From Planctomycetota bacterium (GTDB lineage Bacteria > Planctomycetota > Phycisphaerae > Sedimentisphaerales > Anaerobacaceae): 25,359 bases of DNA. Below are positions 22,492-24,995 of this stretch, piece by piece. How positions within the stretch are numbered: position 1 is the first letter of the stretch; each line of letters opens with the position of its first letter. Both the position numbers and the translations under genes were made by a program. Below the pieces are notes generated by a model. That model was given only the letters and a program-made list of their open reading frames with translations, searched no databases and was not told the DNA's origin. The stretch lies in NCBI GenBank assembly GCA_013202635.1, contig JABMRO010000264.1:1-25359 (forward strand). Reading direction: 5' to 3'.

Positions 22492-23334
22492 TCAGTAGTC
22501 CTTAAATTTCCTCATCCATTCAGGCCAGTCAGACTGCCGGACACCACCGGCTTTTGTCCAGGCCCCTGTTACGTCAAAGTTTTTATGCCACTTCAACGTC
22601 CATAACTCCTTAAGGCCTGTCTTTCTGACGGACCAATCCATAAAAAGACTGTTTACAAACCCATCATGCCGGTTGATGCAGAAAGGATCCATGCTCTGAC
22701 TCGGCCAGATACTTAACTTCGGCGCATCCTCATAACGTGGCGGCCGGCAAGAGGCGCTCGGCCAGGCGCTTGGCCGGCGGCTATCCAACAATACAGGAAT
22801 GTTATTTGCGCCTCGGTGATTTACGTGATGCCAGAGTTCCGAATCCTCGAGATGACGGAAAGACCAGGAAGAACACCATGCGTTTAAGCCATAGCTGCCC
22901 GAAGGACGTTTGTGATTGGGGCAAATCCAGGCTTCAAACGTATGTACCTGCCGACCAACGCCAAATTTTCGAGCCATAGGGCAAAGGAAATATTCAGCAA
23001 AATCGCCACCATAGTATAATACCGGGTCAGCAGGACACTCCCATTGCTGCTCATCCCGCAGGGCGAAACGGCCTCCCTCATCCTGAAGACGCGTATTAAA
23101 GATAAAACCCCACTGGTTCAGGTTCGATTGACAGCCAACAGCCCCCGCCTGCTTTCTGACGCGCTGTAGTGCAGGCATCAATACCGCCGTCAATAATGCA
23201 ACGATGGCAATCACCATCAAAAGCTCTATTAACGTAAATCCCGTTAGTCCTAAGGACTCCTTTCGGAGAAATCTTCTCCTTTCCCGATTGGGAATTCCAA
23301 TTTCTAACGGGATAAAGCCATTTCGTTTGCACAT
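22492..23334 (-). CDS. Prepilin-type N-terminal cleavage/methylation protein (H-X9-DG class variant) carrying an in-frame 78-nt insertion
   Basis: G-FTLIELLMVIAIVALL...MPAL...C.SNL.QWG; C-terminal RH-X9-DW. Confidence 0.9.
   Translation of the reverse strand: MCKRNGFIPLEIGIPNRERRRFLRKESLGLTGFTLIELLMVIAIVALLTAVLMPALQRVRKQAGAVGCQSNLNQWGFIFNTRLQDEGGRFALRDEQQWECPADPVLYYGGDFAEYFLCPMARKFGVGRQVHTFEAWICPNHKRPSGSYGLNAWCSSWSFRHLEDSELWHHVNHRGANNIPVLLDSRRPSAWPSASCRPPRYEDAPKLSIWPSQSMDPFCINRHDGFVNSLFMDWSVRKTGLKELWTLKWHKNFDVTGAWTKAGGVRQSDWPEWMRKFKDY
23239..23312. mobile_element. 74-bp MITE-like inverted-repeat element, copy 1
   Basis: TCCCGTTAG...CTAACGGGA terminal inverted repeats; TAAA (TTTA on the coding strand) at both 23235-23238 and 23313-23316. 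Confidence 0.85.
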
Positions 23335-23345
23335 GGCGCTAAATC

Positions 23346-24128
23346 TTACCAGTCAGGTATTGGCGCACCGCTCGGCCAGCTTAATACAAAAGTATTGCCA
23401 GCCGGATATGCCGAGACCTGCTCGACATGCCCGTCCACAAACGACGCATTGGCATAACCCGTATTCAGGTCCCCGCCCGGAGCGCGATGGAAGGTAGCGA
23501 AACAATCAGTATTACAGGGAGGCGTGGAACGTAAATTGTTATCATTGATTGAAGCGCCGCTAAGGCCCGGAATAGACCACGAATTCTCCTCGGAGAAGAA
23601 AAATACACCTGCCGGATTCTTCACCTGGGATTCATTCCGAACTTTATCTATGTTGGTACGATATTGTTGCGGCACAGCCCCCCATGCGTCACCGTTGAGG
23701 TAGGAATTCATACAGTAACTGTATTGAGGTTCGATGGGAGTTGTAACACCATCACAATTATTGCAACCCATCATTCTGGCTACAACGTCGAATTCCGGAC
23801 ACAGGTGAATATCTTTACTCTTCAGATAGGGCCAAAGTTCACCGGCAAGGTCCGGATTTTCGTCAAGATTCATGCTTTTATCGTGCCATCGGCACCCTCC
23901 GGCTTGATCTTCGTAGAGCCAACTGAATGAATAAGGAAAAGCACCATCATAATCGTCCAGGTACATTCTCGAACTCAGGGTATACTGTTTCAGATTGGAC
24001 CTGCATAGAATTCCCCATACCTGTTTTTTCGCACGCTGCAGCGCCGGCATCAGTATCGCCATCAACAATGCGATAATGGCAATCACCACCAGAAGCTCTA
24101 TTAATGTAAAACCTTTTCGTTTGTGCAT
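23346..24128 (-). CDS. Prepilin-type N-terminal cleavage/methylation protein with H-Xn-DGH tail; no insertion
   Basis: MHKRKG-FTLIELLVVIAIIALL...CRSNLKQ; ...FATFH...NASFVDGHV; AAAGGAGA RBS. Confidence 0.92.
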   Translation of the reverse strand: MHKRKGFTLIELLVVIAIIALLMAILMPALQRAKKQVWGILCRSNLKQYTLSSRMYLDDYDGAFPYSFSWLYEDQAGGCRWHDKSMNLDENPDLAGELWPYLKSKDIHLCPEFDVVARMMGCNNCDGVTTPIEPQYSYCMNSYLNGDAWGAVPQQYRTNIDKVRNESQVKNPAGVFFFSEENSWSIPGLSGASINDNNLRSTPPCNTDCFATFHRAPGGDLNTGYANASFVDGHVEQVSAYPAGNTFVLSWPSGAPIPDW

Positions 24129-24155
24129 AATGTCTCCTTTCGTTACCGATTATTT

Positions 24156-24995
24156 TTAGTATTCTTTAAAGTTTCTCATCCATACCGGCCAGTCCGAGGC
24201 AGTGGTTCCGTCGGCTGTGGTCCAGAGTCCCTGAGTATCGAAGTTGCGGTGCCAATTAAGTGTCCATAGCTCCTTTAGACCGACCTTCCTCACATTAAGG
24301 TCCAGGAAGACGGTATTTATATAGCCATTGTGCCTGTTGATGCATACTAAGTGCATTTCGTTTGTAACAATGCCATCAACATCAGGCGGGCCTTCAGTAT
24401 GATTAGGATAGGTATCCCAGACTACACAATCAAAAAACAACGGTATGTTGCTCGCCTTTTTTTGCTCTCGAGTTCTCCAAAAGTTGTCCTCAGGTCGATC
24501 ACCGAGCCATTCATCAATGCCATAGCTGCCGTAATCTTCACCCGGCTTGCTCTCAAAGTCCGTCCAGCCTCCTCCTTCATGTGTCCATCGCCAGGCTCCG
24601 AAGGGGACCCTTCCTCCATCCGTATAAGGTTTTGTTGCCGACGGGCACAAGGTCAATGCCCCCCGCTCCTTGTAATATGGTCGCATTTTATCGGGCCAAT
24701 CTCCGGAGGCATCGGCACCAGTCGGAAACTTTCCATCGGAGTCCTCGAGATACATATGCCAGCAGTAGGACCATTGTTTGATGTTGGACATGCAGGCAAC
24801 CGCCTGTGCCTGTTTCCTGACCCGCTGCAGCGAGGGCATCAATATCGCCATCAATAATGCGATAATGGCAATCACGACCAAAAGCTCTATTAACGTAAAG
24901 CCCGTTAGTCCTAAGGACTCCTTTCGGAGAAACCTTCCCCTTTCCCGATTGTGAATTCCAATTTCTAACGGGATAAAGGCGTTCCGTTTACGCAT
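24156..24995 (-). CDS. Prepilin-type N-terminal cleavage/methylation protein (H-X9-DG class variant) carrying an in-frame 78-nt insertion
   Basis: Start at ATG 24995 (AGGAGGA RBS 5 nt upstream); G-FTLIELLVVIAIIALL...CMSNIKQW; C-terminal RH-X9-DL. Confidence 0.9.
   Translation of the reverse strand: MRKRNAFIPLEIGIHNRERGRFLRKESLGLTGFTLIELLVVIAIIALLMAILMPSLQRVRKQAQAVACMSNIKQWSYCWHMYLEDSDGKFPTGADASGDWPDKMRPYYKERGALTLCPSATKPYTDGGRVPFGAWRWTHEGGGWTDFESKPGEDYGSYGIDEWLGDRPEDNFWRTREQKKASNIPLFFDCVVWDTYPNHTEGPPDVDGIVTNEMHLVCINRHNGYINTVFLDLNVRKVGLKELWTLNWHRNFDTQGLWTTADGTTASDWPVWMRNFKEY
24900..24973. mobile_element. 74-bp MITE-like inverted-repeat element, copy 2
   Basis: 70/74 identical to copy 1; CCCGTTAG/CTAACGGG inverted repeats; TAAA at 24896-24899 and 24974-24977. 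Confidence 0.85.

Follow-up and report, generated by a model that had tools for sequence, protein, structure and literature searches.

Miniature inverted-repeat elements at the prepilin cleavage site in a member of Planctomycetota, with a small GIY-YIG nuclease as candidate mobilising enzyme

Two insertions at the same codon of prepilin-type genes

How do two strongly diverged genes come to carry nearly the same short segment of DNA precisely at the site where prepilin peptidase is expected to cleave their products? The question is raised by the window, by which we mean the whole stretch of 25,359 nucleotides (nt) analysed here (contig JABMRO010000264.1 of assembly GCA_013202635.1, a planctomycete of the family Anaerobacaceae), where three consecutive genes, called A, B and C in this text, encode prepilin-type proteins, and A and C each contain a 74-bp insertion absent from B. 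The two segments are non-autonomous copies, that is, miniature transposable elements with inverted repeats (MITEs), of a widespread family of tiny inverted-repeat elements, and the notion of an element exploiting the prepilin cleavage site is supported. The explanation that best accommodates the data as a whole, namely a mobile MITE at the prepilin site whose peptide would be removed with the leader by the peptidase and which would be mobilised by a GIY-YIG nuclease, is in our judgement probably correct. The relevant features are the following:

23239–23312, minus strand: element copy 1 in gene A, 74 bp, with a 72-bp core CCCGTTAG...CTAACGGG at 23240–23311 and a complementary outer pair T/A
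23235–23238, minus strand: target duplication of copy 1, downstream in gene direction; its TTTA makes up Phe and the opening base of Thr in the rebuilt G-F-T
23313–23316, minus strand: upstream counterpart (gene direction) of the preceding duplication, with the TTTA that belonged to the original GGC TTT A..
24900–24973, minus strand: element copy 2 in gene C, 74 bp, with an outer pair T/C (gene direction) that has lost complementarity
24896–24899, minus strand: downstream (gene direction) member of the target duplication around copy 2, giving the rebuilt F-T
24974–24977, minus strand: upstream counterpart (gene direction) of the preceding duplication, belonging to the original GCC TTT A..
22492–23334, minus strand: gene A, prepilin-type (N_methyl / GFxxxE), 280 amino acids (aa), with the methylation motif from residue 32 and not from about residue 6
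23346–24128, minus strand: gene B, prepilin-type paralog, 260 aa, with the empty site GGT TTT ACA and its TTTA at 24107–24110
24156–24995, minus strand: gene C, prepilin-type, 279 aa from the ATG at 24995, with AAGGAGG 7 nt upstream of the ATG

Both elements are flanked by TAAA on the plus strand, which is TTTA on the coding strand, and both interrupt the gene between the Phe and Thr codons of G-F-T-L-I-E. Read in the coding direction, gene A begins ATG TGC AAA CGA AAT GGC TTT A|T CCCGTTAG...CTAACGGG A|TTT ACG TTA ATA GAG and gene C begins ATG CGT AAA CGG AAC GCC TTT A|T CCCGTTAG...CTAACGGG C|TTT ACG TTA ATA GAG, while gene B reads ATG CAC AAA CGA AAA GGT TTT ACA TTA ATA GAG with nothing inserted, just as expected of the empty site that a first-pass annotation, made from the letters of the window alone, had recognized in the middle paralog. 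Every other detail of its description also proved correct upon re-reading, including the coordinates of the 74-bp elements between two copies of TTTA, the identity of 70 of the 74 bases (four differences), and the gain per gene of 78 nt, i.e. 26 codons without a stop, IPLEIGI(P/H)NRER(R/G)RFLRKESLGLTGF, which make up a net basic peptide. The boundary of 74 bp plus a 4-bp TTTA is confirmed by per-position flank statistics on 150 copies (see below), and the alternative of 76 bp plus TT, which had also been considered, is to be abandoned on the same grounds. The ends of the window copies have 8–10 bp of complementary bases, and the only frames present in either copy are the read-through frames of the host gene, with neither a transposase nor a nuclease encoded.

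The profiles N_methyl (Pfam PF07963) and TIGR02532 match all three proteins, at residues 1–27 in B and at residues 32–53 in A and C, where the motif comes downstream of the insert. All three likewise display the features of class III signal peptides, i.e. a basic leader, Gly at −1, Phe at +1, Glu at +5 and a hydrophobic helix. A homolog of Peptidase_A24 was found in the window's own assembly (contig C213; the assembly, G000, comprises 832 contigs and 4.4 Mb and is 79% complete).

A mobile element family

The family is delimited by the ends YCCCGTTAGAA...TTCTAACGGGR, with copies of 25–123 bp bounded by a 4-bp target duplication of the form YNNR, TTTA and TAAA being the commonest. Exact CCCGTTAGAA-N-TTCTAACGGG pairs account for 202 copies of 23–83 nt in 18 of the 23 genomes of the genus, as opposed to no match at all for a reversed control pattern in the same 23 genomes. 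G000 itself has about 40 places at which ends CCCGTTAGAA / TTCTAACGGG (at most two mismatches per end and three per pair) lie 21–155 bp apart, enclosing very different interiors. The duplications vary from copy to copy (TGCG, TTCA, CTTA, TCGG, TGAG and others), and there are nested copies, each with a duplication of its own (G000 C732, 4722–4796, and locus L008).

The precise limits of the element were derived from 150 non-redundant copies taken from G000 and from other phyla. The left and right flanks match at six successive positions with frequencies of 0.42, 0.79, 0.73, 0.75, 0.80 and 0.46, and the two bases that adjoin the ends are complementary to one another in 129 of the 150 copies (C/G in 109, T/A in 20), which together imply that the element extends one base further at each end and that the duplication is 4 bp long. 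A 6-bp duplication with the consensus GTNNAC was dropped, since the same statistics favour 4 bp plus an extra paired end base. The 4-bp duplication is perfect in 88 copies, with 24 different tetramers represented (TTTA 22, TAAA 16, TGAA 7, TTCA 6), and a weak preference exists for a purine before and a pyrimidine after it.

A scan of prokaryotes at large, with one genome per species, traced the family, among the matches listed, to Omnitrophota, Patescibacteria (the candidate phyla radiation, CPR), Nitrospirota, Desulfobacterota, Pirellulales, Phycisphaerae and others, and at least five of the six flank bases match in 44 of the 86 copies among these matches. The family has the following traits of MITEs: it is short, lacks a transposase of its own, ends in inverted repeats, generates variable target duplications, occurs in many copies and has empty sites. 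The initial proposal that the segments are mobile is borne out by the variable duplications, the nested copies and the contrast between 202 exact-end copies and none for the control. It had been left open that further copies with variable flanking duplications might not exist and that relatives might always be filled; such copies do exist, and relatives, as discussed below, include empty ones.

Three copies in G000 are situated exactly on start codons (C319, 3306–3386; C679, 8064–8159; C560, 3781–3876), where the element's outer A and the duplicated TG.. rebuild the ATG of a signal-peptide protein and of a Tat-signal protein (MNRRTFL). At another locus (L006; G016:C434:6000–9800), three tandem prepilin-type genes each bear a composite element of 99–123 nt at the cleavage site, the left halves of which are similar to the window's copies.

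Empty sites and independent arrival

Three metagenome contigs (L001–L003) preserve a syntenic locus, with a divergently oriented Cpn10 gene followed by an ortholog of gene C (255 aa) and then one of gene B. The region upstream is alignable with the window, gene A is not present, and the site in the C ortholog is empty, so that both filled and empty alleles are found among orthologs, a comparison that the first-pass annotation had called for. The closest homologs of gene C (83–86% identity) are also empty, measuring 253–255 aa and starting with M-x-K-x-x-G|FTLIE; further homologs have different inserts at the same F|T position, with ends that are intact (TPLEIGITN...NFLTGF) or decayed (TPSQ...FTAAF). 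The homologs of gene A are likewise a mixture of filled and empty genes.

Genes A and C share 50% of their residues, and their synonymous divergence (dS) of about 1.8 means that silent sites are saturated, in contrast to the 70/74 identity of the elements. This contrast, combined with the scattering of filled paralogs, sustains the view that the element arrived independently in strongly diverged genes. When 73 prepilin-type paralogs of G000 are arranged on a quickly built maximum-likelihood tree, the 11 filled genes require 10 changes, as compared with a mean of 10.4 for shuffled labels, and A and C do not come out as sisters. The peptide of the 72-nt subtype (...RFLRKESLGLTGF) is encountered also in proteins only 45–50% identical to A. 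The 21 nt 3' of the element are identical in A and C, which may reflect a short conversion tract between the two. The ratio of nonsynonymous to synonymous divergence (dN/dS) between gene C and its empty ortholog is 0.11, most of the history captured by this figure being older than the insertion.

These data bear on the idea that the 26 residues are not mobile at all and instead represent an old family-specific leader module handed down by descent and gene duplication. Its attraction lies in the 51-nt class (PLEIKIPDRKSGRFLTG), which in the genus occurs almost only at prepilin sites, in the recurrence of some inserts in apparent orthologs across species, and in the existence of decayed versions (G000 C95 and C740). 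We nevertheless regard it as highly improbable: not only is the syntenic ortholog of gene C empty and the filled genes scattered over the paralog tree, but the ends are conserved at synonymous positions while the interiors drift, the same ends with variable 4-bp duplications appear between genes and in unrelated genes, and the two window copies are 95% identical in spite of the saturation of silent sites in their hosts.

Reading frame and the rebuilt cleavage site

Two of the three frames through the ends are open, one of them reading PLE...LTG (C|CCG|TTA|GAA; CTA|ACG|GG) and the other PVR...SNG, whereas the third runs into TAG and TAA stops. At a prepilin site only one phase is available: the left junction joins the host's GGN TTT A to Y CCC GTT AGA..., giving F-(T/I)-P-L-E, and the right junction, ...CTA ACG GGR TTT ACN, gives L-T-G-F-T. 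Because the right end terminates in GG+R, the element itself provides the Gly codon, and it does so even where the host residue at −1 is Ala, as in gene C and its relative P0027. Gly-Phe-Thr is rebuilt in all 12 filled prepilin genes of G000, invariably in frame and by different elements with core lengths of 28–79 nt, the genes being lengthened by 39, 57, 78 or more nt. The assertion that the right end restores G-FTLIE accordingly follows from the anatomy of the element and extends to all these genes, and the look-alike of the cleavage site said to be left at the other end, G/A-F-I-P-L-E with Glu at +5, is indeed read in A and C. Two more genes of G000 have decayed inserts (C95 and C740), and decayed old inserts in intact genes are present also at P0006 and P0022.

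The decayed inserts in C95 (minus strand, about 9766 from the far contig end) and C740 (about 1894), which read TPKKKRTLYIEGGRFIAG and TALEFKIHEEERGRFPTA, are still in frame, and in C740 the residue preceding Phe is now Ala.

The relationship of the element to reading frames is general. In a set of 130 copies across phyla, 43 are contained in open frames of 150 codons or more; 40 of these 43 have a length divisible by three, compared with a split of 29/31/27 for the remaining 87 copies. This tabulation, which had been suggested along with the original observation, indicates that read-through is under selection, and the in-frame bias is a product of that selection. In G000, in-frame copies reside also in a 708-codon frame and in a ferredoxin-like gene. 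Locus L138 contains two in-frame copies (515–575 and 2744–2804), situated in genes for a PrmC-type methyltransferase (…RAR|PVRNSITHKMTQKEKASNGAR|PGT…) and an adenine phosphoribosyltransferase.

The sequence itself tells how the window copies came to fit their genes. Each inserted into a TTTA made up of Phe and the opening base of Thr in G-F-T-L-I-E, and since element and duplication together amount to a multiple of three and the frame is open, translation passes through. GG+R supplies a new Gly and the duplicated TTTA restores Phe-Thr, placing an intact G|FTLIE directly before the hydrophobic helix at the end of a leader lengthened from 6 to 32 residues. Prepilin peptidase, as the topology of PilD shows, acts at the membrane face beside the helix. 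It would be expected to cut the membrane-proximal site and leave the mature protein unchanged, making the insertion nearly neutral, and near-neutral copies would accumulate in the prepilin gene family. Removal of the extra peptide by the peptidase is plausible, as judged from sequence comparison, and is favoured by the position of the site beside the helix, the A24 homolog, the length of natural type IVb leaders (15–30 aa; PMC3927602), the keeping of the frame in decayed copies and the dN/dS of 0.11. Translation cannot bypass the insert by starting within it, as neither copy has an in-frame ATG, GTG or TTG.

The insertions could alternatively be tolerated damage, inflicted by a mobile element but cut at the first, look-alike site or nowhere, and persisting thanks to the redundancy of some 90 paralogs. 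The Glu at +5 of G/A-F-I-P-L-E at the left junction and the very redundant nature of the gene family are compatible with this, as is one filled gene of G000 (C70) that continues for only 15 codons past the cleavage site in the assembly. Damage would hardly be expected, though, to keep the frame in 12 of 12 filled genes, with long open frames in 11 of them, and in 40 of 43 in-gene copies across phyla, nor to leave old decayed inserts within intact genes (C95, C740, P0006, P0022), and the place of action of the peptidase at the membrane face points in the same direction. We therefore deem this alternative rather unlikely and continue with removal of the leader by the peptidase as the preferred reading.

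A further possibility is suggested by RNA folding, which predicts for the two copies a moderate structure with a terminal stem of 8–10 bp and inner hairpins (−24.6 and −30.2 kcal/mol; z-scores of −1.1 and −3.2). The element, located about 19 nt after the ATG, might then be a regulatory switch, with a hairpin following the start codon that tunes translation, or with precise excision turning pilin-like genes on and off; a palindrome flanked by short direct repeats is readily lost by precise deletion. The support from folding is confined to copy 1 (z = −3.2), as copy 2 (z = −1.1) does no better than shuffles and in the context of its own mRNA start adopts a best fold without the terminal stem. 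Moreover, the same elements occur in either orientation, and also between genes and within housekeeping genes, an Rfam search of the element returned no match at the gathering threshold or at an E-value up to 1, and no mix of empty and filled alleles appears in unitigs of public sequencing runs, a weak argument since these unitigs are short and broken at repeats. A switch is for these reasons improbable.

An excess of copies at prepilin sites

Of all exact-end copies in the genus, 38 of 202 (19%) directly precede NTTYAC-NYT-NRT-GAR. Twelve of the roughly 90 prepilin-type genes of G000 are filled exactly at G-F|T, and they represent 12 of the about 15 copies at NTTTAC sites in that assembly, where the approximately 90 prepilin sites constitute less than 1% of some 11,300 such hexamers. 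Even when intergenic sites alone are roughly allowed for, the excess is more than tenfold. Members of the 51-nt class and of the 72-nt subtype hardly occur outside prepilin genes. The claim that the prepilin site is targeted is borne out only in part, by the strong enrichment; the primary target is only YNNR, and causes other than targeting fit as well: the excess may stem from recognition beyond four bases, from the persistence of insertions that do no harm, or from transfer of the element from a filled paralog to an empty one.

The last of these possibilities amounts to a form of ectopic homing, in which a break at TTTA in an empty paralog, possibly made by the nuclease of the element, would be repaired from a filled one via the conserved 60–90 nt encoding the helix. 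It would agree well with the strong prepilin excess (12 of about 15 NTTTAC copies against less than 1% of sites), with subtypes specific to prepilin genes (the 51-nt class and the 72-nt RKESLGL subtype) and with the identity of the 21 nt that follow the element in A and C; GIY-YIG enzymes, moreover, are classic homing nucleases. It has to contend with a left homology of only about 20 nt, the leaders of A and C being different (76% identity), and with the insertion of the family at unrelated sites with new duplications, which means that true transposition exists. We consider paralog copying unlikely to be the main explanation, yet a more serious contender than tolerated damage.

A candidate mobilising enzyme

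The window contains no mobilising enzyme with the family ends, as had been noted at the outset. The best candidate, proposed by association in sequence data, is a nuclease of the UPF0213-type GIY-YIG group with 86–91 aa. Another genome of the genus (G003, locus L173) has a 266-bp unit with the ends CCCGTTAGAC...GTCTAACGGG inserted between GTGAGC and GTGAGC (duplication TGAG). It contains an open reading frame (ORF) of 91 aa whose first codon is the host's duplicated start codon; this ORF reads P-V-R via the left end and L-T-G via the right, and stops at a TGA formed together with the duplication. Altogether four loci (L173, L222, L225 and L226) have units of 266–277 bp bounded by terminal inverted repeats and containing one ORF each that ends with ...LTG inside the right end; the ORFs encode a GIY-YIG domain (PF01541, E-values of 1e-15 to 1e-18) and are related in sequence to the UPF0213 proteins 1zg2 and 1ywl. 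Among 401 sampled genomes of Planctomycetota, end pairs 233–293 bp apart are found in six (two for the control); of those units, three have intact homologs of 86–89 aa ending with ...FLSLTG and two are frameshifted. One genome (G385) harbours a coding unit and a non-coding 247-bp unit with common 15-nt ends.

It is because the 266–277-bp relatives have the same ends and encode only a GIY-YIG nuclease that the nuclease is a candidate, and the family may thus be moved by the enzyme of these full-length relatives. The 4-bp duplication could arise through a staggered cut with ligation and fill-in by the host or through repair-templated copying, both being guesses.

Long copies enclosing a transposase or recombinase, for which a search had been recommended, materialized only as the GIY-YIG units in other genomes, as none of the conventional candidates fits. 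DDE transposases of the families PF01609 and PF13701 in five genomes of the genus are never bounded by the family ends (PF13701, IS1380-like, was chosen for the piggyBac-like CCC...TAGAAA end and the TNNA target). G000 has no full-length parent among end pairs 250–8000 bp apart with matching flanks or among ends at contig edges, and the unpaired ends in genomes G014, G016 and G017 represent short copies, degenerate copies or solo ends.

The combined scenario of insertion, leader removal and mobilisation by the nuclease must be weighed against a number of observations. Concerning the leader, the left junction G/A-F-I-P-L-E, with its Glu at +5, mimics the cleavage site, a leader of 32 aa lies at the limit of the lengths known for processed leaders, a genome with about 90 paralogs might put up with a dead gene for some time, and the dN/dS of 0.11 mainly reflects pre-insertion history. 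As to the insertion, the original residue at −1 in gene C is Ala, and at the locus the contigs of four public runs showed the filled allele and no empty one, in short unitigs broken at repeats. The copies also differ greatly from one another in their interiors, an unusual trait in a MITE family. With regard to the enzyme, we know of no nuclease that alone accomplishes cut-and-paste insertion with target duplication, the sole GIY-YIG copy in the genus has the ends CCCGTTAGAC and not ...GAAAT, and a GIY-YIG unit with matching ends was not found in G000, which is 79% complete.

Small GIY-YIG genes occur in every genome of the genus, in numbers of 1–11. The window has one of them in a decayed state (2348–2557, after the tmRNA at 1946–2304), with one in-frame TAA and without CCCGTTAG ends; it belongs to the same small-nuclease family (E-value of 9e-5 to the L173 protein) and may be a dead unit of a sister family. 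Loci L198 and L215 (G014:C403 and G016:C448) exhibit a 297-bp unit with the inverted end TCCCGCCCCTC...GAGGGGCGGGA and a 109-aa GIY-YIG ORF inside, and these different ends indicate that small nuclease units carry several end types.

Relation to known elements

The closest parallel, drawn already in the first-pass annotation, is with the Rickettsia palindromic elements (RPEs), sequences of about 100–150 bp that are present in frame in many unrelated protein genes and translated (Ogata et al. 2000, as summarised in a review of MITEs, PMC10969869). The comparison is apt insofar as the present family likewise inserts in frame into genes, including those for prepilins, PrmC, adenine phosphoribosyltransferase and other proteins, and as both are short and palindromic, add a translated peptide and have short copies devoid of a transposase. 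Judged from that description, RPEs appear to be unrelated in sequence and live in other hosts than the present family, which is spread over many uncultured anaerobic phyla; since length and ends differ as well, we do not class the family with RPEs. The present elements, in addition, are smaller (25–123 bp), have inverted ends of 11–12 bp and a 4-bp duplication, prefer a cleavable leader, so that the mature protein need not bear the insert, and have full-length relatives encoding a GIY-YIG nuclease.

MITEs derived from insertion sequences (IS), such as Correia/CREE, RUP, ERIC and Nezha (PMC10969869), are similar in their small size, inverted repeats, target duplication, high copy number, hairpins and occasional in-frame fusion with host genes. 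They differ in that the coding relative of the present family is a GIY-YIG-only unit of about 270 bp and not an IS encoding a transposase of the DDE, HUH or Ser/Tyr type, and in that the interiors of the present family are far more diverse while its ends are strictly kept. REP/REPIN (RAYT) sequences and IS200/IS605-derived palindromes are also short, numerous and variable in their loops, and sometimes form inverted pairs, but they lack a target duplication and transposon-type inverted repeats and are extragenic, whereas the family described here has a 4-bp duplication and 43 of 130 copies inside long open frames.

The coding units share the GIY-YIG catalytic domain and the character of a selfish nuclease gene with homing genes of the I-TevI type and with UPF0213 proteins (1zg2, 1ywl). 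Unlike homing genes, they specify a protein of 86–91 aa that consists of the catalytic domain only, without a DNA-binding extension, they are bounded by inverted repeats and a duplication, with the ORF termini read from the repeats, and they occupy many unrelated sites and not one cognate allele. Inteins, finally, are selfish in-gene insertions, too, whose product is removed at the protein level to leave the host protein intact; the present elements have no self-splicing domain, any removal would fall to the host's prepilin peptidase together with the normal leader, and they would be limited to the N-terminal site.

A published description of such an element was not found in a literature search limited to open-licence papers and preprints. 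Features that differ from RPEs and intragenic MITEs are the landing in a cleaved leader, the self-supplied Gly, the extreme shortness and diversity, and the nuclease-only coding relatives. We tentatively raise the possibility, which falls somewhat short of being probable, that these elements make up an undescribed class of prokaryotic transposable elements with an autonomous form of about 270 bp (an 86–91-aa GIY-YIG protein with termini specified by the repeats, inverted ends and a 4-bp duplication) and with miniatures in many uncultured phyla, for which in-frame insertion would provide a safe harbour, chiefly in disposable prepilin leaders that the host peptidase would excise at the protein level; that autonomous form would then be the smallest known.

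Should the leader model be true, it would reveal a new and nearly costless way for selfish DNA to live in genes, with a host protease discarding the peptide and the element bringing along the Gly codon that preserves the cut site. There are also consequences for annotation, as filled genes present gene callers and domain models with odd long leaders or lose their N_methyl match, and many filled homologs have no Pfam match. If the link to the nuclease-only units of about 270 bp is true, the known DDE, HUH and Ser/Tyr families would be joined by a further class of transposons, and some of the small UPF0213 / GIY-YIG orphan genes would gain a function.

A tandem repeat at the window start

A repeat starting with CCCGTTTGAAATTGG and present at about 50 contig ends was considered as a possible parent IS of the family and rejected, as it is a 123-nt tandem repeat whose version in the window starts without CCCGTT. 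Positions 1–254 of the window are made up of this repeat (2.1 copies, 83% matches), which is rich in TTGGGTTTG / TTGGCTTTG and runs off the window start. Sequence akin to it is found at about 50 further contig ends of G000, which makes the repeat a major cause of contig breaks in this assembly.

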